Part shown: positions 2,264 to 41,658 of the stretch, piece after piece
How positions within the stretch are numbered: position 1 is the stretch's first letter
Layout of the letters: each line of letters starts with the position of its first letter
NCBI RefSeq assembly: GCF_044324875.1
Contig: NZ_CP172185.1
Source of the DNA: Escherichia coli
GTDB lineage: Bacteria > Pseudomonadota > Gammaproteobacteria > Enterobacterales > Enterobacteriaceae
Length of the DNA: 64,000 nucleotides
Strand: one strand, 5' to 3'
Made by a program: the position numbers and the translations under genes
Notes under the pieces: model-generated
Told to the model about the DNA's origin: nothing
Seen by the model: the letters and a program-made list of their open reading frames with translations, nothing else
Database searches by the model: none

Positions 2264-4092
2264 GTGATCAGTTTGACGCAAAAGCGTTTTTAAAAACCGT
2301 AACCAGCCAGCCAGGCGTTTATCGCATGTACGATGCTGGTGGTACGGTTATCTATGTCGGCAAAGCGAAAGACCTGAAAAAACGGCTTTCCAGCTATTTC
2401 CGTAGCAACCTCGCTTCGCGCAAAACCGAAGCGCTGGTCGCCCAGATCCAGCAAATTGATATAACGGTTACTCATACAGAAACCGAAGCGCTGTTGCTGG
2501 AACACAACTACATCAAACTCTATCAGCCGCGTTACAACGTTTTGCTACGCGATGATAAATCTTATCCCTTTATCTTCCTGAGTGGCGATACCCACCCGCG
2601 TCTGGCGATGCATCGTGGTGCGAAGCATGCCAAAGGTGAATATTTCGGCCCGTTCCCGAATGGCTATGCCGTACGTGAAACACTGGCGCTACTGCAAAAG
2701 ATATTCCCCATTCGCCAGTGCGAAAATAGTGTTTATCGCAATCGCTCGCGTCCGTGTCTGCAATATCAGATAGGGCGCTGTCTGGGACCGTGCGTTGAAG
2801 GACTGGTGAGTGAAGAAGAATACGCTCAGCAGGTCGAGTATGTGCGCCTGTTTTTGTCTGGCAAAGATGATCAGGTGCTTACGCAACTCATTATCCGTAT
2901 GGAAACTGCCAGCCAGAATCTGGAGTTTGAAGAAGCGGCACGTATTCGCGACCAAATTCAGGCGGTGCGACGCGTCACCGAAAAACAGTTTGTGTCCAAT
3001 ACCGGCGACGACCTTGACGTTATTGGTGTGGCGTTCGATGCGGGCATGGCTTGTGTCCACGTATTGTTCATTCGTCAGGGTAAAGTGCTCGGCAGCCGCA
3101 GCTATTTCCCGAAAGTGCCGGGCGGTACGGAACTGAGCGAGGTGGTAGAAACCTTCGTAGGTCAGTTCTATTTACAAGGCAGCCAGATGCGCACCTTACC
3201 GGGTGAGATCCTGCTCGATTTTAATCTTAGCGATAAAACGCTGCTCGCCGATTCCCTTTCAGAACTGGCGGGACGCAAGATTAATGTTCAAACCAAACCT
3301 CGCGGCGATCGGGCGCGTTATCTGAAACTCGCGCGCACCAATGCGGCGACGGCCTTAACCAGCAAACTTTCGCAGCAATCTACCGTTCACCAGCGGCTGA
3401 CCGCGCTTGCCAGCGTATTGAAATTGCCGGAAGTGAAGCGGATGGAGTGCTTTGACATCAGCCATACCATGGGTGAACAAACCGTCGCTTCCTGTGTGGT
3501 GTTTGATGCCAACGGCCCGCTGCGTGCGGAGTATCGGCGCTATAACATTACTGGCATCACGCCGGGCGATGATTACGCGGCGATGAATCAGGTGCTGCGT
3601 CGGCGTTATGGTAAAGCTATCGACGACAGTAAAATCCCGGATGTGATCCTTATTGACGGCGGCAAAGGCCAGCTTGCGCAGGCGAAAAATGTCTTCGCCG
3701 AACTGGATGTCTCATGGGATAAAAATCATCCGCTGCTACTTGGCGTTGCCAAAGGAGCAGATCGTAAGGCTGGGCTGGAAACGCTGTTCTTTGAGCCGGA
3801 AGGTGAGGGATTTAGTTTGCCGCCAGATTCTCCCGCGCTGCATGTTATCCAGCATATTCGCGATGAATCACACGATCACGCGATTGGCGGGCACCGTAAG
3901 AAACGGGCGAAGGTCAAAAATACCAGTTCCCTGGAAACCATTGAAGGCGTCGGGCCAAAACGTCGGCAAATGTTGTTGAAATATATGGGCGGTTTGCAAG
4001 GTTTACGTAACGCCAGCGTTGAGGAAATTGCAAAAGTGCCGGGTATTTCGCAAGGTCTGGCAGAAAAGATCTTCTGGTCGTTGAAACATTGA
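2260..4092 (+). CDS. uvrC: UvrC, excinuclease ABC subunit C
   Basis: 610 aa; GTG start overlapping uvrY stop (GTGA); GIY-YIG motif ([24 protein letters not shown]) at N-terminus. Confidence 0.95.
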
Positions 4093-4148
4093 TGTCTCTG
4101 TAGCAACATAGGGGTAATCTTACTGACAACAGATAGTTACCCGTCATT

Positions 4149-4697
4149 ATGCAATTTAATATCCCTACGTTGCTTACACTGTTCCGTGTCATCCTTATCC
4201 CATTCTTTGTATTGGTCTTTTATCTGCCTGTCACCTGGTCGCCGTTTGCCGCCGCGCTCATTTTCTGCGTCGCGGCGGTGACTGACTGGTTCGATGGTTT
4301 TCTGGCACGCCGCTGGAACCAGAGTACCCGGTTTGGTGCTTTCCTTGACCCTGTGGCAGATAAAGTTCTCGTGGCTATCGCCATGGTGCTGGTAACCGAG
4401 CATTATCACAGCTGGTGGGTGACCTTACCGGCAGCAACGATGATCGCCCGTGAAATTATTATTTCTGCGCTACGTGAATGGATGGCGGAGTTGGGTAAAC
4501 GCAGTAGCGTGGCTGTCTCCTGGATTGGGAAAGTGAAAACCACTGCCCAGATGGTGGCGTTGGCCTGGCTGCTGTGGCGTCCGAACATTTGGGTTGAGTA
4601 CGCCGGTATTGCACTTTTCTTTGTGGCTGCGGTACTGACTCTGTGGTCAATGTTGCAATATTTGAGCGCTGCGCGTGCAGATTTGCTTGATCAGTGA
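4149..4697 (+). CDS. pgsA: PgsA, CDP-diacylglycerol--glycerol-3-phosphate 3-phosphatidyltransferase
   Basis: 182 aa membrane protein [20 protein letters not shown]... with CDP-alcohol phosphatidyltransferase motif (DWFDGFLAR...[10 protein letters not shown]). Confidence 0.95.
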
Positions 4698-4747
4698 TCG
4701 TTTCGGCGCAATTTTCAGCAAACGATCAAAAGTGGTGAAAAATATCG

Positions 4748-4775
4748 TTGACTCATCGCGCCAGGTAAGTAGAAT
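4748..4775 (+). promoter_or_regulatory. sigma70 promoter of the glyW-cysT-leuZ tRNA operon (TTGACT-16 nt-TAGAAT, GC-rich discriminator)
   Basis: TTGACT at 4748-4753, TAGAAT at 4770-4775, followed by gcaacgc; AT-rich UP-like region upstream. Confidence 0.7.
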
Positions 4776-4848
4776 GCAACGCATCGAACGGCGGCACTGA
4801 TTGCCAGACGATAATAAAATCAAGTGATTAACTGATTGCTTGATGAAT

Positions 4849-4924
<76 letters not shown>

Positions 4925-4978
4925 GTTTAAAAGACATCGGCGTCAAGCGGATGTCTGGCTGAAAGGCCTGAAGAATTT

Positions 4979-5052
4979 GGCGCGTTAACAAAGCGGTTAT
5001 GTAGCGGATTGCAAATCCGTCTAGTCCGGTTCGACTCCGGAACGCGCCTCCA
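4979..5052 (+). tRNA. cysT: tRNA-Cys (anticodon GCA)
   Basis: GGCGCGTTAACAAAGCGGTTATGTAGCGGATTGCAAATCCGTCTAGTCCGGTTCGACTCCGGAACGCGCCTCCA. Confidence 0.97.
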
Positions 5053-5064
5053 CTTTCTTCCCGA

Positions 5065-5151
5065 GCCCGGATGGTGGAATCGGTAGACACAAGGGATTTA
5101 AAATCCCTCGGCGTTCGCGCTGTGCGGGTTCAAGTCCCGCTCCGGGTACCA
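5065..5151 (+). tRNA. leuZ: tRNA-Leu (anticodon TAA), long variable arm
   Basis: GCCCGGATGGTGGAATCGGTAGACACAAGGGATTTAAAATCCCTCGGCGTTCGCGCTGTGCGGGTTCAAGTCCCGCTCCGGGTACCA. Confidence 0.97.
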
Positions 5152-5195
5152 TGGGAAAGATAAGAATAAAATCAAAGCAATAAGCAGTGTCGTGA

Positions 5196-5219
5196 AACCA
5201 CCTTCGGGTGGTTTTTTTG
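5196..5219 (+). terminator. Intrinsic terminator of the tRNA operon
   Basis: aaaccaccttcgggtggttt hairpin followed by T7 run. Confidence 0.8.
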
Positions 5220-5346
5220 TGCCTGCAACTTGTCGTTACACCCTCCTTAATTTTTAATCACCGGCAAAGCCACTCAAAAAGTATCTCTGTTACGGACCGA
5301 CATGTAAGATAGGTGCTGGCGAGTTGAGATCCACAAGGAAAAGCGT

Positions 5347-6012
5347 ATGAAAACGGGACCGTTAAACGAAAGTGAGTTGGAATGGCTGGACGATATTCTG
5401 ACCAAATACAACACTGACCACGCCATTCTTGATGTGGCGGAGCTGGACGGTTTATTGACGGCGGTGTTGAGTTCTCCGCAAGAGATTGAACCGGCACAGT
5501 GGCTGGTTGCCGTGTGGGGTGGGGCTGACTATGTGCCGCGCTGGGCATCAGAGAAAGAGATGACGCGCTTTATGAACCTGGCCTTTCAACATATGGCCGA
5601 TACCGCAGAGCGTCTGAACGAATTCCCGGAGCAGTTTGAGCCGTTATTCGGCTTGCGAGAAGTCGATGGCAGCGAGCTGACGATTGTTGAGGAGTGGTGC
5701 TTTGGCTATATGCGGGGCGTGGCGCTTTCTGACTGGTCAACGTTACCCGATTCGTTAAAACCAGCGCTGGAGGCGATTGCGCTGCACGGTACTGAGGAAA
5801 ACTTCGAGCGGGTAGAGAAGATGTCGCCAGAAGCGTTTGAAGAGAGCGTAGATGCCATTCGACTGGCGGCGCTTGATCTACATGCGTACTGGATGGCGCA
5901 TCCGCAGGAAAAAGCTGTTCAGCAACCGATCAAAGCAGAAGAGAAACCGGGGCGTAATGATCCTTGCCCGTGCGGTAGTGGTAAGAAATTTAAGCAGTGC
6001 TGCCTGCATTAA
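5347..6012 (+). CDS. yecA: YecA, UPF0149 protein with C-terminal SEC-C metal-binding motif
   Basis: 221 aa; C-terminal [17 protein letters not shown] motif. Confidence 0.92.
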
Positions 6013-6073
6013 GAGATCAAATTGGGTGTCAGCGTTAATTCTGGCACCCAATAAGGAATTTGAGGCTATCTAA

Positions 6074-7285
6074 TCACCCCACTTCTGGTAACAAGCCTGC
6101 TGCAATCAAAAATTGCACGCTAATCACAGCAATACCACAGAGAAACACCACCACCAGCGCCGGACGACCACCTTTCACCCGGTAACCCGCCTGAGGATTG
6201 TGCTTTCTGCTTTGCCAGGTCAACAGCGAAGGGATAATCAATGCCAGTAGCGCCAGCGCCACACCGGCGTAACCCAGCGCCATCACAAATCCTCGTGGAT
6301 AAAACAGTGCAAACGCCAACGGCGGCAGAAAGGTAATTGCACCAGTTTGCAATCGTCCACCAACGGTATTTGAACGCTGAAACAAATCTGCCAGATAATC
6401 AAATAAACCTAACGCAACGCCGAGAAATGACGTGGCGAGGGCTAAATCAGCAAATAAATGCACCGCCAGCTCAACATGCGGAGAGGCCACCATTTCGCGT
6501 AACGCCTGTAACAGCCCGTTTAATCCGGCATGATTAGCCAGCAATCCCATAAAGGTTGTTGAATCAATGCTGCCAAGCGTCGCCACCTGCCAGAAAATAT
6601 ATGCCACCAGGGGGATCGCACTACCGATTATAAACACCCAGCGTAGCTTACGAATGTTGCCATCCATATAGCTGACAATACTCGGCACGCTACCGTGAAA
6701 ACCAAACGATGTAAAAATCACCGGGATTGCAGATAGTGCCAGCCCCTGTTGCAACGGCAGGGTTAAAAGATTCACCTTGTGAATATGCGGAAGCAGCAGT
6801 ACCAGCATCACCACCAGAAAAATAATTTTGGCGCTGAACAGAAAACGGTTAAATAAATCGACCAGCGAAGTTCCGACACAAACCACGCCACCGGCAACAA
6901 AAGTGAACAACAGCACGCCAGCGGTTGCCGACATTGAAATACCTGTCCAGTCGCTGATGCTGGAGGCCAACAATTCACCAGCCCCGCTGATGTATGCCGC
7001 AGTCAGAGCATACATTAAGAACATCATACTGAAGCCCGTCAGCCACTGACCGTAGCGTCCCAGATAGCGTTTTGCCAGCGTGCCCAGACCGGTATCTGCC
7101 GGGACATGCTGGTACACCTCCAGCAGTAATAGCGCCGTGTAGCACATCAACGCCCAAAGCCCAATCAACAAGATTAACGTGACGCTAAAACCAACACCTG
7201 CCGCAGCCAGCGGCATTGCCAGCATGCCTGCGCCAATTGTGGTTCCCGCCACGATAAAAACACTTCCCAGAGTTCTGTTTTTCAC
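6074..7285 (-). CDS. tyrP: TyrP, tyrosine-specific transporter
   Basis: 403 aa polytopic membrane protein [30 protein letters not shown]...; aromatic amino acid permease family. Confidence 0.95.
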
Positions 7286-7376
7286 GCTTTCTTCTGTCCT
7301 GACGATCTTTATGAGTGATATCTGCGGCGCAGGTTAAGGCATAACGGCTGCTTCGTCAAACCGGCGTTACATATGG

Positions 7377-7394
7377 TGTAAATATAAATGTACA
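7377..7394. promoter_or_regulatory. TyrR box (TGTAAA-N6-TGTACA) in the tyrP promoter region
   Basis: tgtaaatataaatgtaca matches TyrR box consensus TGTAAA-N6-TTTACA; about 90 bp upstream of tyrP start. Confidence 0.7.
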
Positions 7395-7476
7395 ATAAAA
7401 TGCGTTCAGTCCTGCGCTGGCGCAAAGTCTTGGTAAGCGGCAATCGCTACGCTAGGCTTTTTTTTGAGGAGGAACG

Positions 7477-7716
7477 ATGGACTCTATTCACGGTCATGAA
7501 GTGTTAAATATGATGATTGAATCAGGCGAGCAATATACGCATGCCAGTCTGGAAGCTGCGATTAAAGCGCGTTTTGGTGAACAGGCACGTTTTCACACCT
7601 GCTCGGCAGAAGGGATGACAGCGGGAGAGCTGGTGGCGTTTCTGGCAGCAAAAGGCAAATTTATACCTTCGGAAGAAGGTTTTTCGACCGATCAGAGTAA
7701 GATTTGCCGTCACTGA
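7477..7716 (+). CDS. yecH: YecH, small DUF2492 protein
   Basis: 79-aa ORF MDSIHGHEVLNMMIESGEQYTHASLEAAIKARFGEQARFHTCSAEGM... Confidence 0.85.
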   Translation: MDSIHGHEVLNMMIESGEQYTHASLEAAIKARFGEQARFHTCSAEGMTAGELVAFLAAKGKFIPSEEGFSTDQSKICRH

Positions 7717-7753
7717 TTTGAAACGGCGGCAGTAAACCTGCCGCCGGAGAACA

Positions 7754-8251
7754 TTAGTTTTGAGTGTCGAGGGTAGAGAGTTCTTTGTCGATAAAATACA
7801 AACCTTCGCCGCTTTTGCCTGCAAGACTTAATTTATCAATAATCGATTTGAACAGTTTCTCTTCTTCATGCTGCTCAGAAACATACCATTGCAGGAAATT
7901 AAATGTTGGGTAGTCCTGATTGGTCATTGCAGCATGAGCCAGTTCGTTAATTTTCTGCGTGATTAATTGTTCGTGTTTATAGGTTTCCTGGAATAATTCA
8001 TCAAGTGAGGAATATTCAGCAAACGGAGATTCAACGGTATTAATACGCGGTAAGTTGCCGGTATCAGTCAGATAATCAAACAGACGCTGCATATGCGTCA
8101 TCTCTTCCTGGGCGTGACGGCGCAGGAACGCGGCAGCACCTTCGAAGGTATGATAGCTGCACCAGGCGCTCATTTGCTGATAAAGCAGTGAAGAGTACAG
8201 TTCCAGGTTCATCTGCTCATTAAGTTTTTCAATCATTTCTGGTTTCAGCAT
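7754..8251 (-). CDS. ftnA: FtnA, ferritin (iron storage)
   Basis: 165 aa from [30 protein letters not shown]...; ferritin ferroxidase residues; ORF track extends 5 codons upstream (MWSTI) but the known start is MLKPEM. Confidence 0.93.
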
Positions 8252-29880: not shown

Positions 29881-30001
29881 CTATGCTTGATGTGTGGCAG
29901 CAAAAGCCCTAAATCCCGCCTGTTTTGCCCCTTACTCAAACCATTGAACGCTTTGCGCTCTGGCATCATTTACGCTTAATACTCTTTCCAGGATTGGCGA
30001 C

Positions 30002-31150
30002 GTGTCTGACGAGAGCGACGACAAAACAGAAGCCCCCACACCTCACCGACTAGAAAAAGCGCGGGAAGAGGGGCAAATCCCGCGTTCACGTGAATTAACG
30101 TCACTGCTGATTTTGTTAGTGGGCGTGTGTGTTATCTGGTTTGGCGGTGTGTCGCTGGCCCGTCGATTGTCGGGCATGCTCTCCGCGGGATTGCATTTTG
30201 ATCACAGCATCATCAATGACCCGAATCTGATCCTCGGGCAGATTATTCTGCTGATCAGAGAAGCCATGCTGGCGCTGCTGCCACTGATTAGCGGCGTGGT
30301 GCTGGTGGCGCTCATTTCTCCGGTCATGCTGGGAGGGCTGGTATTTAGCGGCAAATCCTTGCAGCCGAAGTTTTCCAAACTCAACCCGCTACCGGGGATT
30401 AAACGGATGTTCTCGGCACAGACTGGCGCGGAGTTGCTTAAAGCAATTTTGAAAACCATCCTGGTTGGCAGCGTGACGGGATTTTTTCTCTGGCATCACT
30501 GGCCGCAGATGATGCGCTTAATGGCCGAGTCTCCGATTACCGCCATGGGTAATGCGATGGATCTGGTAGGGCTATGCGCGCTGCTGGTGGTACTTGGTGT
30601 TATTCCGATGGTGGGATTTGACGTCTTTTTCCAAATCTTCAGCCACCTGAAAAAGCTGCGAATGTCGCGGCAGGATATTCGTGATGAGTTCAAACAAAGC
30701 GAAGGCGACCCCCATGTTAAAGGGCGGATCCGTCAGATGCAGCGAGCGGCTGCACGGCGTCGGATGATGGCCGATGTGCCGAAAGCGGATGTCATTGTCA
30801 ATAACCCGACCCACTATTCGGTAGCGTTGCAGTATGACGAAAACAAAATGAGCGCACCAAAAGTGGTCGCTAAAGGTGCAGGACTGGTCGCGCTGCGCAT
30901 TCGTGAAATTGGCGCTGAAAATAACGTCCCGACGCTTGAAGCGCCGCCGCTGGCGCGAGCGCTGTATCGACATGCGGAGATCGGTCAACAAATCCCGGGT
31001 CAACTGTACGCCGCAGTGGCGGAAGTGCTGGCCTGGGTCTGGCAACTGAAACGCTGGCGTCTGGCTGGTGGACAGCGCCCTGTACAACCTACTCATCTTC
31101 CGGTGCCGGAAGCCCTGGATTTTATTAACGAGAAACCGACCCATGAGTAA
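30002..31150 (+). CDS. flhB: FlhB, flagellar export apparatus protein / substrate-specificity switch
   Basis: 382 aa; GTG start; autocleavage NPTH motif present (VIVNNPTHYSVAL). Confidence 0.93.
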   Translation: MSDESDDKTEAPTPHRLEKAREEGQIPRSRELTSLLILLVGVCVIWFGGVSLARRLSGMLSAGLHFDHSIINDPNLILGQIILLIREAMLALLPLISGVVLVALISPVMLGGLVFSGKSLQPKFSKLNPLPGIKRMFSAQTGAELLKAILKTILVGSVTGFFLWHHWPQMMRLMAESPITAMGNAMDLVGLCALLVVLGVIPMVGFDVFFQIFSHLKKLRMSRQDIRDEFKQSEGDPHVKGRIRQMQRAAARRRMMADVPKADVIVNNPTHYSVALQYDENKMSAPKVVAKGAGLVALRIREIGAENNVPTLEAPPLARALYRHAEIGQQIPGQLYAAVAEVLAWVWQLKRWRLAGGQRPVQPTHLPVPEALDFINEKPTHE

Positions 31151-33221
31151 TCTGGCCGCGATGCTGCGCCTGCCTGCAAACCTGAAATCGACACAATGGC
31201 AGATCCTTGCCGGACCGATTTTGATCCTGTTGATCTTGTCGATGATGGTACTGCCACTGCCCGCATTCATACTCGACCTGCTGTTTACCTTCAATATTGC
31301 CTTGTCGATCATGGTGTTGCTGGTGGCGATGTTTACCCAGCGCACGCTTGAGTTTGCTGCGTTTCCGACGATTCTGTTGTTTACCACGTTGTTGCGTCTG
31401 GCACTTAATGTGGCTTCAACCCGTATCATTTTGATGGAAGGGCATACCGGCGCGGCGGCTGCTGGGAAGGTGGTCGAAGCGTTCGGTCACTTCCTCGTTG
31501 GTGGCAATTTCGCTATCGGTATCGTGGTGTTTGTCATTCTCGTGATCATCAACTTTATGGTTATCACCAAAGGTGCCGGGCGTATTGCGGAAGTGGGCGC
31601 GCGCTTTGTTCTCGATGGTATGCCGGGTAAGCAGATGGCGATTGACGCCGACCTTAACGCCGGATTGATTGGTGAAGATGAAGCGAAAAAACGCCGCTCC
31701 GAAGTGACTCAGGAAGCCGATTTTTACGGTTCAATGGACGGGGCAAGTAAGTTTGTTCGCGGCGATGCCATCGCCGGGATCCTCATCATGGTCATAAACG
31801 TTGTCGGTGGGTTGCTGGTCGGCGTGCTGCAACATGGCATGAGCATGGGACACGCGGCGGAAAGTTATACGCTATTGACCATTGGCGACGGTCTGGTGGC
31901 ACAAATTCCGGCGTTGGTGATTTCTACCGCCGCGGGGGTCATCGTTACGCGTGTCAGCACCGATCAGGATGTTGGCGAGCAGATGGTGAATCAGCTTTTC
32001 AGTAACCCGAGCGTTATGTTGTTAAGCGCCGCCGTGCTCGGTTTACTCGGCCTGGTGCCTGGAATGCCGAACCTGGTATTTTTGCTGTTCACTGCCGGAT
32101 TGCTTGGGCTGGCCTGGTGGATCCGCGGACGCGAACAAAAAGCGCCTGCCGAACCAAAACCGGTAAAAATGGCAGAGAATAATGCCGTTGTCGAAGCGAC
32201 GTGGAACGATGTACAACTGGAAGATTCTCTGGGAATGGAAGTGGGTTATCGCCTGATCCCGATGGTCGATTTCCAGCAGGATGGTGAGTTGCTGGGCCGT
32301 ATACGCAGTATTCGCAAGAAATTTGCCCAGGAGATGGGGTTTCTGCCGCCAGTGGTGCACATTCGCGACAATATGGATCTGCAACCTGCCCGCTATCGCA
32401 TTTTGATGAAAGGCGTGGAGATAGGCAGTGGTGATGCTTATCCGGGGCGTTGGTTGGCGATTAACCCTGGTACCGCTGCCGGGACGTTACCTGGTGAGGC
32501 GACCGTCGATCCGGCATTTGGCCTGAATGCTATCTGGATTGAAAGTGCGCTTAAAGAACAGGCGCAGATTCAGGGGTACACCGTGGTTGAGGCCAGCACG
32601 GTGGTGGCAACGCATCTTAACCACCTCATTAGCCAGCATGCCGCAGAGCTGTTTGGTCGTCAGGAGGCGCAACAGTTGCTGGATCGCGTCGCCCAGGAGA
32701 TGCCAAAGCTGACGGAAGATCTCGTTCCTGGCGTCGTCACGCTCACCACACTGCATAAAGTGCTGCAAAATCTGCTCGATGAAAAAGTGCCGATTCGCGA
32801 TATGCGCACTATTCTCGAAACGCTGGCGGAACATGCGCCCATCCAAAGCGATCCACATGAATTAACCGCCGTCGTGCGCGTGGCGTTGGGACGGGCGATT
32901 ACCCAGCAGTGGTTTCCTGGCAAAGATGAAGTTCATGTTATTGGCCTCGATACACCGCTGGAACGTTTGTTGCTACAGGCGTTGCAGGGCGGGGGCGGAC
33001 TGGAGCCAGGGCTGGCGGATCGTTTACTGGCGCAAACTCAGGAAGCGCTATCCCGTCAGGAGATGTTGGGTGCGCCGCCAGTTTTATTGGTGAACCACGC
33101 GCTGCGACCATTATTGTCTCGCTTCCTGCGCCGCAGCTTGCCGCAGTTAGTGGTGCTGTCGAATCTGGAACTATCTGATAACCGACATATCCGCATGACG
33201 GCGACAATTGGCGGTAAATGA
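31143..33221 (+). CDS. flhA: FlhA, flagellar export apparatus protein
   Basis: 692 aa from MSNLAAMLRLPANLKSTQWQ; overlaps flhB 3' end by 8 nt; ORF track start 31068 is an upstream extension. Confidence 0.95.
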   Translation: MSNLAAMLRLPANLKSTQWQILAGPILILLILSMMVLPLPAFILDLLFTFNIALSIMVLLVAMFTQRTLEFAAFPTILLFTTLLRLALNVASTRIILMEGHTGAAAAGKVVEAFGHFLVGGNFAIGIVVFVILVIINFMVITKGAGRIAEVGARFVLDGMPGKQMAIDADLNAGLIGEDEAKKRRSEVTQEADFYGSMDGASKFVRGDAIAGILIMVINVVGGLLVGVLQHGMSMGHAAESYTLLTIGDGLVAQIPALVISTAAGVIVTRVSTDQDVGEQMVNQLFSNPSVMLLSAAVLGLLGLVPGMPNLVFLLFTAGLLGLAWWIRGREQKAPAEPKPVKMAENNAVVEATWNDVQLEDSLGMEVGYRLIPMVDFQQDGELLGRIRSIRKKFAQEMGFLPPVVHIRDNMDLQPARYRILMKGVEIGSGDAYPGRWLAINPGTAAGTLPGEATVDPAFGLNAIWIESALKEQAQIQGYTVVEASTVVATHLNHLISQHAAELFGRQEAQQLLDRVAQEMPKLTEDLVPGVVTLTTLHKVLQNLLDEKVPIRDMRTILETLAEHAPIQSDPHELTAVVRVALGRAITQQWFPGKDEVHVIGLDTPLERLLLQALQGGGGLEPGLADRLLAQTQEALSRQEMLGAPPVLLVNHALRPLLSRFLRRSLPQLVVLSNLELSDNRHIRMTATIGGK

Positions 33222-33613
33222 TGAGAACCTTATTAGCAATATTATTGTTTCCGCTGCTGGTGCAAGCCGCCGGGGAGGGGATGTGGCAGGCGAGTAGTGT
33301 GGGCGTTACGCTGAATCACCGTGGTGAGTCGATGTCGTCAGCGCCTCTTTCTACTCGACAACCTGCTGCAGGATTGATGACGCTGGTGGCGTGGCGTTAT
33401 CAGCTTATCGGCCCGACACCTGCAGGACTGCGGGTTCGCTTGTGTTCACAATCTCGTTGTGTCGAATTAGAAGGGCAGAGTGGAACCACCGTGGCCTTTT
33501 CCGGTATACCGGCGATAGAACCGTTGCGATTTATCTGGGAAGTGCCTGGCGGTGGGCGGTTAATTCCGCCGCTAAAGGTACAACGGAATGAAGTGATTGT
33601 GAATTATCGTTAA
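33221..33613 (+). CDS. flhE: FlhE, flagellar protein (periplasmic)
   Basis: 130 aa MRTLLAILLFPLLVQAAGEG (signal peptide); start overlaps flhA stop (TGATG). Confidence 0.92.
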   Translation: MRTLLAILLFPLLVQAAGEGMWQASSVGVTLNHRGESMSSAPLSTRQPAAGLMTLVAWRYQLIGPTPAGLRVRLCSQSRCVELEGQSGTTVAFSGIPAIEPLRFIWEVPGGGRLIPPLKVQRNEVIVNYR

Positions 33614-33620
33614 TGATAAA

Positions 33621-33650
33621 AAAGCCGATGTCTGCCATGACATCGGCTTT
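33621..33650. terminator. Bidirectional hairpin terminator shared by convergent flhE and argS
   Basis: aaagccgatgtc...gacatcggcttt inverted repeat flanked by A and T runs. Confidence 0.7.
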
Positions 33651-33665
33651 TGCCGTATAACGCGA

Positions 33666-35399
33666 TTACATACGCTCTACTGTCTCAATACCCAGCGTAT
33701 CCAGACCCAGTTTCAGCGTCTTCGCCGTCAGTTGTGCCAGTTTCAGACGGCTGTTACGCACTTCTTCGTTTTCTGCGCTGAGGATCGGGCAGTGCTCGTA
33801 GAAGCCAGAGAACAGACCAGCCAGATCGTACAGGTAAGCACACATCACATGCGGCGTGCCTTCACGGGCAACCACGGTGAGGGTTTCTTCAAACTGCAGC
33901 AGGCGAGCTGCCAGTTGCGCTTCACGATCTTCACGGATGATAACCGGAGCTGCAGCCAGTTGCTCTTCGTCAATTTCTGCTTTACGGAACACGGACAATA
34001 CACGCGTGTATGCATACTGCATGTATGGCGCGGTATTACCCTCAAACGCCAGCATGTTGTCCCAGTCGAAGATGTAGTCCGTGGTGCGGTTTTTGGAGAG
34101 ATCCGCATATTTCACCGCACCAATACCAACTGCGTTAGCCAGTTTTTCCAGCTCGTCGGCTGGCATATCCGGGTTCTTTTCTGCCACCAGACGACGTGCA
34201 CGCTCCAGGGCTTCATCCAGCAGATCGGCCAGTTTCACTGTACCACCCGCGCGGGTTTTGAACGGTTTGCCGTCTTTGCCCAGCATCATGCCGAACATGT
34301 GGTGTTCCAGCGGTACGGATTCCGGTACATAGCCTGCTTTACGGACGATAGCCCACGCCTGCATCAGGTGTTGATGCTGACGGGAGTCGATGTAATACAG
34401 CACGCGATCGGCATGCAGTGTTTCATAACGATATTTCGCACAGGCGATATCAGTGGTGGTGTAGAGATAGCCACCATCTTTCTTCTGAATGATCACGCCC
34501 ATCGGTTCGCCTTCCTTGTTTTTGAACTCATCAAGGAATACGACGGTCGCGCCTTCACTTTCTACTGCCAGACCTTTGGCTTTCAGGTCCGCCACGATAC
34601 CCGGCAGCATTGGGTTGTAGAGACTTTCACCCATGACGTCATCGCGGGTCAACGTCACGTTCAGACGATCGTAGGTGATCTGGTTCTGCGTCATGGTGAT
34701 GTCGACCAGTTTGCGCCACATCTCGCGGAAATATTCGTCACCGCTTTGCAGTTTGACTACGTAGTTACGTGCACGCTCGGCAAACTCTTCATCTTCGTCG
34801 TAATGCTTTTTCGCATCGCGGTAGAAACCTTCAAGGTCAGCCAGCTCCATTTCACCGGCGTTTTCTTGCTGCTGCTTTTCCAACCACGCAATCAGCATAC
34901 CGAACTGAGTACCCCAGTCGCCGACGTGGTTCGCGCGAATCACTTTGTGACCGAGGAACTCCAGAGTACGCACTGCCGCGTCACCAATAATGGTAGAGCG
35001 CAGGTGACCGACGTGCATCTCTTTCGCCACGTTCGGAGCGGAGTAGTCAACCACAATGGTCTGTTTTTCTGGCGTAGCAACACCGAGACGATCGGACGCC
35101 AGCGCCTGCTGAACATGATCAGCCAGGAAGGCTGGATCAAGAAAAATGTTGATAAAGCCTGGACCGGCGATCTCAACTTTGCTGGCGATACCGTTAAGAT
35201 CCAGATGAGTCAGCACCTGCTCTGCTAATTGTCGCGGTGCCATACCCAGTTTTTTAGCAACTGCCATCATGCCGTTAGCCTGATAGTCGCCGAACTGAAC
35301 TTTTGCTGACTGACGAACCTGCGGTTCGCAATCCGCAGGCGCGCCTGCCGCAATCATGGCCTGACGGACTTTTTCTGAGAGAAGAGCCTGAATATTCAC
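33666..35399 (-). CDS. argS: ArgS, arginine--tRNA ligase
   Basis: 577 aa [21 protein letters not shown]...; class I aaRS HVGH ([15 protein letters not shown]) and C-terminal IETVERM. Confidence 0.97.
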
Positions 35400-35614
35400 C
35401 GGAATACCTTACATTGATGAAGCGAGCAAAAATTGCCCGCACCAGTTAAAGAAATTAGGGCGGGAGTATACTGCAAATGGCTGTTTTCGTCAGCAACGTG
35501 CGCGTGGCGTATTGCCGTTTTCACTATTGCATCAGAAGCGGCGTGAAATCAGCGGTTGGTTGGCGCAGGGCAACAGGGTAAATTAACGCTTTTACTGAAA
35601 GACGAAGAGTGATT

Positions 35615-36181
35615 ATGGCGAACTGGCAATCTATCGACGAGTTGCAGGATATTGCATCGGATTTACCGCGATTTACCCACGCATTAGATGAACTTTCCCG
35701 CCGTCTGGGGTTGGATATCACTCCGCTGACTGCCGATCACATTTCCTTGCGTTGCCATCAAAACGTCACCGCTGAACGCTGGCGTCGCGGGTTTGAACAG
35801 TGCGGCGAGCTTTTGTCAGAAAATATGATCAATGGCAGACCGATTTGTCTGTTTAAATTGCATGAACCGGTACAGGTTGCGCACTGGCAGTTTTCCATTG
35901 TGGAGCTACCGTGGCCCGGGGAAAAACGTTACCCGCACGAAGGTTGGGAACATATTGAAATCGTTCTGCCGGGCGATCCAGAAACGCTGAATGCCCGTGC
36001 GCTGGCATTGCTTTCTGATGAAGGACTCAGCCTGCCGGGGATCTCAGTTAAAACCAGTTCGCCAAAAGGTGAGCATGAGCGATTACCGAACCCGACGCTG
36101 GCGGTCACCGATGGCAAAACGACCATTAAATTTCATCCGTGGTCCATTGAAGAGATCGTTGCCAGCGAGCAGTCAGCGTAA
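35615..36181 (+). CDS. yecM: YecM, VOC-family metal-binding protein
   Basis: 188 aa from MANWQSIDELQDIASDLPRF. Confidence 0.9.
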   Translation: MANWQSIDELQDIASDLPRFTHALDELSRRLGLDITPLTADHISLRCHQNVTAERWRRGFEQCGELLSENMINGRPICLFKLHEPVQVAHWQFSIVELPWPGEKRYPHEGWEHIEIVLPGDPETLNARALALLSDEGLSLPGISVKTSSPKGEHERLPNPTLAVTDGKTTIKFHPWSIEEIVASEQSA

Positions 36182-36185
36182 TTAA

Positions 36186-37020
<835 letters not shown>

Positions 37021-37211
37021 ATCCCCGAGAAGTATAAAAAACGAACGATTTCGGTGATCAGTTGAGCGCGTGACAGTGCGCATAGCGTTGTGCTAAAAAT
37101 TTTTATACATTCATATTAATTATGTAATTTAAATTACTAAAACTGACAAATATATATTCTAAATAACAACTGGGTTATTCTTTAGCAATTAATGATTACA
37201 TTGTAATAAAT

Positions 37212-37220
37212 CATATTCTT
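37212..37220. repeat. Left copy of 9-bp target-site duplication (CATATTCTT) flanking IS1
   Basis: Identical 9-mer directly abuts both ends of the IS1 (37212-37220 and 37989-37997). Confidence 0.9.
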
Positions 37221-37275
37221 GGTGATGCTGCCAACTTACTGATTTAGTGTATGATGGTGTTTTTGAGGTGCTCCA

Positions 37276-37551
37276 GTGGCTTCTGTTTCTATCAGCTGTC
37301 CCTCCTGTTCAGCTACTGACGGGGTGGTGCGTAACGGCAAAAGCACCGCCGGACATCAGCGCTATCTCTGCTCTCACTGCCGTAAAACATGGCAACTGCA
37401 GTTCACTTACACCGCTTCTCAACCCGGTACGCACCAGAAAATCATTGATATGGCCATGAATGGCGTTGGATGCCGGGCAACTGCCCGCATTATGGGCGTT
37501 GGCCTCAACACGATTTTACGTCACTTAAAAAACTCAGGCCGCAGTCGGTAA
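37276..37551 (+). CDS. insA: IS1 InsA (transposition inhibitor / N-terminal part of InsAB' transposase)
   Basis: 91 aa [40 protein letters not shown]...; GTG start. Confidence 0.95.
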
Positions 37552-37973
37552 CCTCGCGCATACAGCCGGGCAGTGACGTCATCGTCTGCGCGGAAATGGA
37601 CGAACAGTGGGGCTATGTCGGGGCTAAATCGCGCCAGCGCTGGCTGTTTTACGCGTATGACAGGCTCCGGAAGACGGTTGTTGCGCACGTATTCGGTGAA
37701 CGCACTATGGCGACGCTGGGGCGTCTTATGAGCCTGCTGTCACCCTTTGACGTGGTGATATGGATGACGGATGGCTGGCCACTGTATGAATCCCGCCTGA
37801 AGGGAAAGCTGCACGTAATCAGCAAGCGATATACGCAGCGAATTGAGCGGCATAACCTGAATCTGAGGCAGCACCTGGCACGGCTGGGACGGAAGTCGCT
37901 GTCGTTCTCAAAATCGGTGGAGCTGCATGACAAAGTCATCGGGCATTATCTGAACATAAAACACTATCAATAA
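37470..37973 (+). CDS. insB: IS1 InsB' frame (expressed as InsAB' transposase via -1 programmed frameshift at AAAAAAC 37527-37533)
   Basis: 167-aa ORF in -1 frame relative to insA; canonical IS1 slippery motif ttaaaaaactc present. Confidence 0.9.
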
Positions 37974-37988
37974 GTTGGAGTCATTACC

Positions 37989-37997
37989 CATATTCTT
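37989..37997. repeat. Right copy of 9-bp target-site duplication (CATATTCTT)
   Basis: See left copy. Confidence 0.9.
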
Positions 37998-38103
37998 TAT
38001 CGATTATTTCAGGCAGTGTTGTGCCGAATTATGCAAGCGGTCAATTCGTTGTATATTTAATTATACAATGATTTCGGTGTTCTGGAATTAATTAGAGGAA
38101 TCT

Positions 38104-39204
38104 ATGCGAGGGAAAAAACGCATTGGGTTAATGTTTTTGCTGATAGCGGTTGTGGTTGGTGGCGGCGGGTTATTGCTGGCGCAAAAAGCCTTACATAAAA
38201 CGTCGGATACCGCATTTTGCCTTTCCTGCCACTCGATGAGTAAACCTTTTGAGGAATATCAGGGAACTGTCCACTTTTCGAACCAGAAAGGGATACGTGC
38301 GGAATGTGCCGATTGCCATATTCCAAAGTCAGGGATGAATTATTTATTTGCTAAATTAAAAGCTTCTAAAGATATTTATCATGAATTTGTTAGCGGCAAA
38401 ATAGACAGTGACGATAAATTCGAAGCGCATCGTCAGGAAATGGCCGAAACAGTATGGAAAGAATTAAAAGCAACTGATTCTGCAACGTGTCGTAGTTGCC
38501 ATTCTTTTGATGCCATGGATATTGCCTCGCAAAGTGAATCTGCGCAGAAAATGCATACCAAAGCGCAAAAGGACGGCGAAACCTGTATCGATTGTCATAA
38601 AGGCATTGCCCATTTTCCACCAGAAATAAAAATGGATGACAACGCGGCGCATGAGCTGGAAAGTCAGGCCGCTACTTCAGTTACCAATGGCGCACATATT
38701 TATCCTTTCAAACCTTCCCGCATAGGCGAACTGGCCACTGTGAATCCTGGTACCGATCTCACCGTCGTTGATGCCAGTGGCAAACAGCCGATCGTTCTGT
38801 TGCAGGGTTATCAAATGCAGGGCAGTGAAAGCACGCTCTACCTGGCGGCAGGTCAACGTCTGGCGCTAGCCACATTAAGTGATGAAGGTATCAAGGCGCT
38901 GACGGTAAACGGGGAATGGCAGGCTGACGAATACGGCAATCAATGGCGTCAGGCGTCTTTACAGGGTGTGCTTACCGATCCCGCATTAGCGGACCGTAAA
39001 CCGCTATGGCAATACGCTGAAAAACTTGACGATACCTATTGCGCTGGTTGCCATGCCCCTATTGCCTCCGACCATTACACCGTCAATGCTTGGCCGTCCA
39101 TTGCCAAAGGTATGGGGGCGCGAACCAGCATGAGCGAAAACGAACTGGACATTTTGACGCGGTACTTCCAGTACAACGCCAAAGATATTACCGAGAAACA
39201 GTGA
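38104..39204 (+). CDS. torY: TorY, membrane-anchored pentahaem c-type cytochrome (TMAO/N-oxide reductase system III)
   Basis: 366 aa [22 protein letters not shown]...; multiple CxxCH haem motifs (CLSCH, CADCH, CRSCH, CIDCH, CAGCH). Confidence 0.95.
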
Positions 39205-39228
39205 TCCTCGTTGATCAGGGAGGAAGTT

Positions 39229-41658
39229 ATGACATTAACAAGACGTGAATTTATTAAACACAGCGGTATTGCCGCTGGGGCGCTGGTGGTGACATCGGCT
39301 GCACCGCTACCCGCATGGGCAGAAGAGAAGGGTGGCAAAATCCTCACCGCGGGCCGTTGGGGAGCGATGAACGTAGAAGTGAAGGACGGCAAGATTGTTT
39401 CTTCGACAGGCGCGCTGGCGAAAACCATACCGAACTCCTTACAGTCTACGGCGGCGGATCAGGTACACACCACGGCGCGTATTCAGCATCCGATGGTGAG
39501 AAAAAGCTATCTCGATAATCCACAGCAACCGGCGAAAGGTCGTGGCGAAGATACCTATGTACAGGTGAGCTGGGAACAAGCATTAAAACTGATTCATGAG
39601 CAACATGATCGTATTCGTAAAGCTAACGGACCATCGGCCATTTTTGCCGGATCTTACGGCTGGCGCTCTTCTGGCGTGTTGCATAAAGCGCAAACCTTAC
39701 TGCAACGTTATATGAACCTGGCGGGCGGTTATTCCGGGCATAGCGGCGATTATTCAACCGGTGCGGCACAGGTGATCATGCCGCATGTGGTGGGTTCCGT
39801 GGAGGTGTATGAACAGCAGACCTCCTGGCCGCTGATTCTGGAAAACAGCCAGGTTGTGGTGCTGTGGGGGATGAACCCGCTGAATACCTTAAAAATTGCC
39901 TGGAGCAGTACCGATGAGCAAGGGCTGGAATACTTCCATCAGCTGAAAAAATCTGGCAAACCAGTGATTGCCATTGATCCTATCCGCTCCGAAACCATCG
40001 ACTTCTTTGGCGATAACGCCACATGGATCGCCCCAAATATGGGTACCGACGTGGCGTTGATGTTAGGGATTGCGCACACCTTGATGGTACAAGGTAAGCA
40101 CGATAAGGCCTTCCTGGAAAAATACACCACCGGCTACCCGCAGTTTGAAGAGTATCTGGCAGGCAAGAGCGATAATACGCCGAAGAGCGCGGCCTGGGCG
40201 GCGGAAATTACTGGCGTACCGGAAGCGCAGATAGTCAAACTCGCTGAACTGATGGCGGCGAATCGCACAATGCTGATGGCAGGCTGGGGAATTCAGCGCC
40301 AGCAATATGGTGAACAGAAACACTGGATGCTGGTGACGCTGGCGGCGATGTTAGGGCAGATTGGTACACCGGGCGGCGGTTTTGGTTTCTCTTATCATTA
40401 CTCCAACGGTGGTAACTCGACGCGTGTTGGCGGCGTGCTGCCGGAAATGTCTGCGGCGATTGCCGGACAGGCCAGTGAGGCCGCTGATGATGGCGGAATG
40501 ACGGCGATTCCTGTTGCCCGTATCGTCGATGCGCTGGAAAATCCTGGCGGAAAATATCAGCATAACGGTAAAGAACAAACGTATCCGAATATCAAAATGA
40601 TCTGGTGGGCGGGTGGCGGTAACTTTACCCATCACCAGGATACTAATCGTCTGATCAAAGCCTGGCAGAAACCGGAGATGATCGTCGTTTCTGAATGCTA
40701 CTGGACCGCAGCTGCTAAACATGCAGATATCGTATTACCGATCACCACATCGTTTGAGCGCAATGACTTGACGATGACCGGTGATTACAGCAACCAGCAT
40801 ATTGTACCGATGAAGCAGGCTGTCGCTGCGCAATTTGAAGCGCGTAACGATTTTGACGTGTTTGCCGATCTTGCTGAATTACTCAAACCTGGCGGAAAAG
40901 AGATCTATACCGAAGGTAGAGATGAAATGGCGTGGCTGAAATTTTTCTATGATGCCGCTCAGAAAGGTGCCCGTGCGCAACGCGTGACTATGCCGATGTT
41001 TAATGCCTTCTGGCAGCAAAATAAACTGATCGAAATGCGCCGCAGCGAGAAGAACGAACAGTACGTTCGTTATGGTGATTTCCGCGCCGATCCGGTGAAA
41101 AATGCGCTGGGTACGCCAAGCGGCAAAATTGAGATTTACTCCAAAACGCTGGAAAAATTTGGCTATAAGGATTGCCCGGCACACCCAACCTGGCTTGCGC
41201 CTGATGAGTGGAAAGGTTCCGCCGACGAGAAGCAGTTGCAGCTTCTGACCGCACATCCGGCACACCGTTTACACAGTCAGCTTAACTATGCGGAACTGCG
41301 TAAAAAATATGCGGTTGCCGATCGTGAACCGATCACTATTCACACCGAAGATGCTGCTCGCTTTGGTATTGCGAATGGCGATCTGGTGCGTGTCTGGAAC
41401 AAACGTGGTCAGATTCTGACAGGCGCGGTGGTGACTGACGGGATCAAAAAAGGCGTGGTATGCGTGCATGAAGGTGCATGGCCAGATCTGGAAAATGGCT
41501 TGTGTAAAAACGGCAGTGCGAACGTGTTAACGGCGGATATCCCCAGCTCTCAGCTGGCAAATGCCTGTGCCGGTAACTCTGCGCTGGTGTATATCGAAAA
41601 ATATACGGGCAATGCACCGAAGTTAACGGCGTTTGATCAGCCAGCTGTTCAGGCATAA
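39229..41658 (+). CDS. torZ: TorZ (BisZ), periplasmic molybdoenzyme TMAO/N-oxide reductase
   Basis: 809 aa from [31 protein letters not shown] (Tat signal, RREFIK); DMSO reductase family. Confidence 0.95.

Follow-up and report, generated by a model that had tools for sequence, protein, structure and literature searches.

The stretch of E. coli chromosome investigated in this study (64 kb, hereafter the window) carries flhE, the last gene of flhBAE, and argS, encoding arginine--tRNA ligase, in converging orientation. With reference to the list of open reading frames, Pfam, tblastn and the RefSeq annotation, the neighbourhood reads flhA (31068-33221, plus strand), flhE, argS, yecM (35609-36181, plus strand) and cutC (36195-36941, plus strand). 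The gene identities were obtained from tblastn searches with ArgS and FlhE, with ArgS matching at 100% over residues 1-577, and from strain TUM14771, whose identical DNA is annotated in RefSeq. The features of the junction are as follows:

33218..33613, plus strand: flhE (open reading frame list; Pfam PF06366 FlhE, 140 bits; RefSeq annotation of identical DNA), with the second ATG at 33221 as the start according to RefSeq and the stop TAA at 33611-33613
33611..33616, plus strand: tandem stops TAA-TGA at the end of flhE (direct sequence comparison)
33614..33665, no strand: the flhE-argS spacer of 52 bp, which is the entire yecT-less haplotype
33666..35399, minus strand: argS, converging on flhE, with its stop at 33666-33668 (open reading frame list, tblastn, RefSeq annotation)

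The spacer reads TGATAAAAAAGCCGATGTC-TGCCAT-GACATCGGCTTTTGCCGTATAACGCGA. No yecT or other LprI-type coding sequence was detected in this gap, and the junction is contiguous in the same way as in other yecT-less genomes. A search of the complete 64-kb window for yecT returned a best tblastn E-value of 7 and nothing meaningful with blastn. The sequence-only reading had described the flhE and argS stops as 52 bp apart, with one hairpin and no yecT between them, and this description is borne out by the open reading frame coordinates, the folding and the yecT searches.

Two further elements were noticed elsewhere in the window. A full-length MicL small RNA gene lies at 36713-37020 on the plus strand, overlapping the 3' part of cutC and extending past it, as it does in K-12 (Rfam RF02654, 362 bits). 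About 200 bp past the 3' end of MicL, an IS1 copy starts between micL/cutC and torY (37221 to about 37988), with a perfect left inverted repeat GGTGATGCTGCCAACTTACTGAT at 37221-37243 and an InsB-type open reading frame at 37470-37973 (Pfam DDE_Tnp_IS1, 261 bits). Because of this IS1 copy, a 24-kb query taken from the window matched a median of 35 places per genome, as well as many plasmids.

The hairpin between the converging stops

The spacer harbors a single hairpin at 33620-33651, composed of AAAAGCCGATGTC (33620-33632), the loop TGCCAT (33633-38) and GACATCGGCTTTT (33639-33651), and situated 6 nt from the flhE stop and 14 nt past the argS stop. The stem has a 9-bp G+C-rich core and reaches 13 pairs with its A:U extensions, 6 of the pairs being G-C, and it is closed by a loop of 6. 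Its computed folding energy is -25.4 kcal/mol on the plus strand and -25.5 on the minus strand (z = -4.3 and -4.4, respectively), and 0 of 200 shuffled sequences folded equally well. The parts of the hairpin and its flanking tracts are:

33618..33623, read on the minus strand: A6 tract, equal to U6 in the argS transcript (sequence, and a terminator scan match on the minus strand)
33624..33632, no strand: left arm of the G+C-rich stem, GCCGATGTC (folds; identical in the window, CFT073, the divergent genome SCPM-O-B-8794 and E. albertii)
33633..33638, no strand: loop TGCCAT, variable among lineages (CTGCAATA in CFT073, where it is enlarged by G33639 -> A; CGTAACCGC in E. albertii)
33639..33647, no strand: right stem arm, GACATCGGC (folds and comparison)
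33648..33651, plus strand: T4 tract, a short U tract for the flhE transcript (sequence; TGTT in CFT073)

The last 4 nt of the A6 tract can pair with the T tract at 33648-33651. During the terminator scan, for which at least 5 T in 8 positions were demanded, a match was obtained on the minus strand from 33651 to 33620, where the stem is followed by TTTTTTATCA. In the argS direction, then, a stable G+C stem-loop, a U tract, nearness to the stop and conservation at orthologous loci were all found together, and the hairpin is most likely the intrinsic terminator of argS. Read on the minus strand, the hairpin with its U6 would make up a canonical intrinsic terminator for this gene. Since A6 flanks the hairpin on one side and T4 on the other, it probably ends the flhBAE transcripts too, more weakly; on the plus strand the same hairpin followed by U4 would stop flhBAE transcription less efficiently, giving a shared bidirectional terminator. 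The plus strand, however, offers only TTTTG (4 U) after the hairpin, which falls below the scan rule and failed the scan, and CFT073 has TGTT in place of the T tract and SCPM-O-B-8794 has CTTT, such that flhBAE may be read through or may stop in another way. The TGTT of CFT073 also suggests that it is mainly the argS direction that is under selection.

In E. coli K-12, full-length RNA profiling by Ju and colleagues (2019, Nat Microbiol) reportedly revealed bidirectional terminators between convergent genes across the whole genome. The junction of the window resembles that class in having a single G+C-rich hairpin with A and T tracts between converging stops, each strand presenting a hairpin followed by a run of U, whereas it differs in its asymmetry, with U6 for argS against U4 for flhE, and in being a prediction from sequence.

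The stem of the short spacer has been kept in three species, as the four sequences compared have an identical left arm and, apart from G33639->A in CFT073, an identical right arm. The flanking motifs ATAAAAAA and ATAACG are likewise the same in E. albertii, SCPM-O-B-8794 and both E. coli forms, while the loops differ, and all variants of the short-allele hairpin fold at about -17.8 to -25 kcal/mol. A perfect 13-bp palindrome at an intergenic site could also be a REP/BIME repeat, a small RNA, a palindromic site for protein binding or something similar, with no terminator function. We consider this very improbable, as several observations speak against it: a query containing the spacer matched a median of one place per genome, which is not the behaviour of a dispersed repeat; an Rfam scan of 30000-40000 recorded no family in the spacer even at E <= 1; the A tract, G+C stem and T tract are arranged as in an intrinsic terminator, 6 nt from one of the converging stops and 14 nt from the other; and other Enterobacteriaceae carry an equivalent hairpin, different in sequence and the same in architecture, at the same place after argS.

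Two haplotypes in E. coli and other Escherichia

The sequence-only reading had placed a short gene, yecT, between argS and flhE in MG1655, and this proved correct. The gap between the same two stops there is 784 bp instead of 52 bp, a net difference of 732 bp, and it holds yecT (b1877, 162 aa, in the argS direction) and yecV (b4778, 14 codons). The K-12 order argS-yecV-yecT-flhE (b1876, b4778, b1877, b1878) shares with the window the flanking genes, their order and convergence, and a terminator starting ATAAAAAAGCC directly after argS. It differs in the stem of that terminator (AAGCCTGATC/GATCAGGCTT against GCCGATGTC in the window), in a separate 14-bp inverted repeat after yecT, and in the flhE stop, which is TGA and not TAA-TGA. 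The additional K-12-type DNA, about 728 bp, is AT-rich and lies between the argS terminator and the flhE stop.

Homology between the two forms is limited by the last sense codon of flhE (CGT TAA TGA in the window, CGC TGA in K-12) on one side and by a point about 5 nt before the argS stop on the other. The sole segment common to both spacers is ATAAAAAAGCC(T)GAT, which forms the flhE-proximal edge of the argS hairpin in both alleles and whose score was reached by 6-10 of 500 shuffles. A clean insertion or deletion was therefore rejected as a model, because global alignment scatters the 52 bp over the 784 bp with no real homology other than this segment. An origin of the yecT segment as a mobile element (insertion sequence, integron cassette or prophage remnant) was also rejected, since no boundary repeats were found in the K-12 interval and no recombinase is annotated there. 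Two side observations were made in MG1655. A perfect 11-bp direct repeat, TGTGAATTATC, occurs in its locus (L001) at 1099-1109, in the 3' end of flhE, and at 1228-1238, across the yecT stop, 129 bp apart; by our estimate about 0.1 such repeats would be expected by chance, and it could be a coincidence or a relic of the joining of the yecT segment. The other concerns a 100-nt bin of argS at about 34569-34668 (900-1000 nt from the 3' end of the gene), in which the window and CFT073 agree throughout and MG1655 departs from them at 12 positions, compared with 0-5 in adjacent bins; this looks like a small recombination patch in the argS of K-12.

The distribution of both forms was investigated in 5,426 complete E. 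coli genomes, 5,425 of which hold the locus. The short junction was detected in 1,782 of the 5,426 (112-bp junction query, at least 80% covered), and yecT-interval sequence in 3,642 (784-bp K-12 query), among which 3,554 were covered by at least 80% and some others contain IS1 insertions or truncations. The two classes together account for 5,424 of the 5,425 locus-bearing genomes, in a ratio of roughly 1:2. The short allele is found in CFT073, of phylogroup B2, and 3 kb of the window are 99.9-100% identical to TUM14771 (100%), MS 69-1, NMBU_W05E18, 28Eco12 and many others; NMBU_W05E18 belongs to ST38 and phylogroup D (PMC7311804) and 28Eco12 to ST38 (PMC6963479). The 52-bp spacer of the window recurs in the RefSeq genomes of CFT073 and other B2 or D strains, where the annotation has no gene between flhE and argS; the CFT073 spacer differs at 3 of 52 positions, by which its stem is one pair shorter and its plus-strand T tract is broken. 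The yecT allele occurs in K-12, B-derived strains, O157:H7, O55:H7, O26:H11 and O121:H19. It is degraded in some lineages, as seen from IS1 insertions in the interval (hits H31 and H57) and from O121:H19 (H69), which has a partial copy of 86%, and truncated products of yecT are annotated in Shigella flexneri (proteins P0003-P0008 and P0021-P0023). The flhE-argS difference is thus a deep, lineage-level polymorphism of two alleles in E. coli.

Beyond E. coli, we scanned for FlhE in one genome per species and obtained 80 loci, E. fergusonii not being recovered. A 55-bp spacer was detected in E. albertii (L007) and in SCPM-O-B-8794 (L004), the latter a divergent genome labelled E. coli whose argS is only 93% identical to that of the window; both show the same stem arms, GCCGATGTC and GACATCGGC, and the same flanking motifs, with other loops. 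The yecT allele was detected at the same place in E. whittamii (L006) and Escherichia sp. E1V33 (L005), where, in comparison with MG1655, the YecT protein is 96-98%, the yecT DNA 95.7-97.1% and the spacer DNA 90-94% identical, a spacer divergence comparable to that of argS and flhA between species. Our literature search found nothing on strains E1V33 or SCPM-O-B-8794, and no paper describing the flhE-argS polymorphism. A recent import of either haplotype from another species was rejected, because the mismatch profiles per 100 nt in flhA/flhE and argS are species-typical and show no sharp tract boundary. Since the short spacer is present in E. albertii and the yecT version in E. whittamii and E1V33 at species-level divergence, both haplotypes are older than E. 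coli, and each has orthologs in more than one species.

The end of flhE also varies among the short alleles. It reads CGT TAA TGA in the window (33608-33616) and the E. coli short alleles, CGG CAG TGA in E. albertii and CGC CAA TGA in SCPM-O-B-8794 (4391-4399 in both of the latter loci), and the FlhE of these two is one Gln longer. Judged from these codons, the TAA of E. coli appears to have come from CAA, a change by which the tandem stops were produced.

Taken as a whole, the best explanation, to which we give a probability of roughly 0.85, is that two old haplotypes exist at this junction, that the short one is complete, and that its hairpin, the sole functional element of the 52 bp, would serve as a shared bidirectional terminator, activity in both directions being predicted from the features described above. 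The 52 bp of the window represent an intact yecT-less haplotype, one of two that segregate in E. coli and across Escherichia, and the alternative haplotype of K-12, O157, O26 and others keeps a terminator at the same position by argS, with about 728 bp containing yecT and yecV beyond it.

Two other accounts of the missing gene were considered. The first, a recent deletion of yecT in the window strain and hence a strain-diagnostic indel, has on its side that MG1655 is 732 bp longer at the site; it is extremely unlikely, as 1,782 complete genomes, belonging to two or more deep phylogroups, share the identical junction, E. albertii and SCPM-O-B-8794 have an orthologous spacer whose stem is the same, and the spacer of the window is no subset of the K-12 sequence, so that deletion breakpoints inside K-12-type DNA are lacking. 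The part of the sequence-only reading that stands is the absence of the segment relative to MG1655; the diagnostic value does not, the short junction being common to those 1,782 genomes (CFT073 and ST38 of phylogroup D included) and orthologous in E. albertii, and the difference is no clean indel either, as the spacers cannot be aligned except over about 15 nt bordering the argS terminator. The second account, that yecT was acquired by K-12 or its lineage specifically, agrees with the AT-rich composition of the gene (39% G+C) and with its repression by H-NS/StpA and activation by BglJ-RcsB in K-12 (PMC3950696), which is typical of foreign DNA. It is next to impossible in view of the yecT-interval DNA in 3,642 of 5,426 genomes, O157:H7, O55:H7, O26:H11, O121:H19 and B strains among them, and of yecT at the same site in E. 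whittamii and Escherichia sp. E1V33.

Gain and loss of yecT

Outside Escherichia, yecT was absent from the flhE-argS site in all 76 of the 76 loci examined. Most of these gaps measure about 3-3.7 kb and harbor an MFS_2 transporter and a GH88 hydrolase (L008-L083, at about 4400-8000 of each locus), and those of Salmonella and some Citrobacter contain an additional PBP2-like transpeptidase. Four Enterobacter/Lelliottia genomes (L041, L043, L048 and L051) possess their own spacer of 54-57 bp with a different hairpin, AAACCCGGCG...CGCCGGGTTT, and these short spacers arose independently. The flhE-argS gap is thus a recurrent site, or hotspot, of gene-content change in the Enterobacteriaceae.

The gene yecT must have been acquired within Escherichia, because it is absent from the outgroup loci, has 39% G+C as compared with 53% in its flanks, and is H-NS/StpA-repressed and BglJ-RcsB-activated in K-12. 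Whether the short allele of E. coli then reflects primary absence or secondary loss is more finely balanced, and we lean slightly towards primary absence, in favour of which E. albertii has an orthologous short spacer and, within E. coli, the short form is carried by B2 and D. These phylogroups usually branch early in E. coli.

Secondary loss would mean that the ancestral Escherichia already had yecT and that the short haplotype stems from one ancient deletion or replacement, which remodelled the argS terminator and was kept or spread by homologous recombination. We rate it somewhat short of even odds. The K-12-type 3' flank of argS is closer to the argS terminators of Citrobacter and Salmonella than the short type is, for example in TCAGGC(C)TTTTTTATTGCC, with maximum scores of 13-17 for the K-12 type against 9-12 for the short type; the short-type flanks, however, also beat shuffled sequences in this comparison, as both types do, which makes the difference one of degree. 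The FlhE of the long allele ends in Arg-stop like that of the outgroups, and E. albertii and SCPM-O-B-8794 have the extra Gln codon; moreover, yecT is present in two of the four non-coli Escherichia genomes. On the other hand, E. albertii has the short allele, none of the 76 non-Escherichia loci has yecT, and the short allele is held by the early-branching B2 and D groups. That E. albertii and E. coli lost the segment by separate deletions is made less likely by the hairpin sequence they have in common.

The yecT product and a possible role in immunity

The YecT protein of MG1655 matches Pfam PF07007 (LprI/DUF1311) with 64.8 bits against a cut-off of 22, over profile positions 1-106 of 106, and on reading its sequence the N-terminus shows a hydrophobic, signal-like segment; the product is thus predicted to be a secreted LprI/DUF1311 protein. 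Its nearest relatives outside Escherichia are 60-62% identical. Among the five homologues examined, three (P0011, P0017 and P0018) immediately precede a PAAR gene. T6SS genes (VgrG, or TssM and TssA) and a neighbouring effector of peptidoglycan-hydrolase type are found on the contigs of P0011 and P0017 as well; the remaining two homologues (P0012 and P0015) lie outside T6SS clusters. The homologue loci are:

L085, 2755-6380: T6SS cluster visible, with VgrG, a 761-aa effector (2755-5037) containing a Pesticin/lysozyme-like domain (28.2 bits, cut-off 25.8), a second LprI gene and then the YecT homologue
L084, 917-6818: T6SS cluster visible, with a CHAP-domain effector and four small open reading frames preceding the YecT homologue
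L089, 1853-2667: YecT homologue immediately before a PAAR gene

Weak EF-hand matches were noticed near residue 435 in both large effectors, that of L084 and that of L085. Clusters of the L084/L085 type belong to Citrobacter and Enterobacter/Pantoea-type genomes and are not present in E. coli, and no effector or T6SS gene adjoins yecT in E. coli.

LprI/DUF1311 proteins, orphan ones included, have been published as T6SS immunity proteins (PMC9796082, PMC8867033, PMC12135965), examples being the orphan immunities of Pantoea agglomerans (PMC9796082) and SED_RS06230 of Salmonella Dublin (PMC8867033), and rescue from Etse4 toxicity by Etsi4 of EHEC has been demonstrated experimentally (PMC12981562). 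YecT resembles these proteins in its LprI domain, in its signal-like N-terminus and in the position of some homologues upstream of PAAR. It differs in that yecT of E. coli stands alone and that T6SS clusters do not surround two of the five homologues; no paper linking yecT itself with the T6SS was found in our literature search. As a speculative and rather unlikely proposal, yecT may protect, as an orphan immunity gene of LprI type, against lysozyme- or pesticin-like T6SS effectors of neighbouring Enterobacterales such as Citrobacter, Enterobacter and Pantoea, in which case its presence and absence would form a long-lived trans-species polymorphism, which competitors armed with a T6SS might maintain through fluctuating selection. 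If this were true, yecT-less lineages, such as B2 and that of the window (phylogroup D-like), would have a specific sensitivity to these effectors, and a function would be given to a gene that has no known one, along with a possible reason for the old dimorphism.

At the level of the locus itself, the site in the window is an intact and common allele, by which neither the flagellar export operon nor argS is affected. The short junction is already contained in the annotation of thousands of genomes and belongs to ordinary accessory-gene variation. The gene order of K-12 is not the default of E. coli between flhE and argS, and yecT is an accessory gene absent from about one third of the complete genomes.
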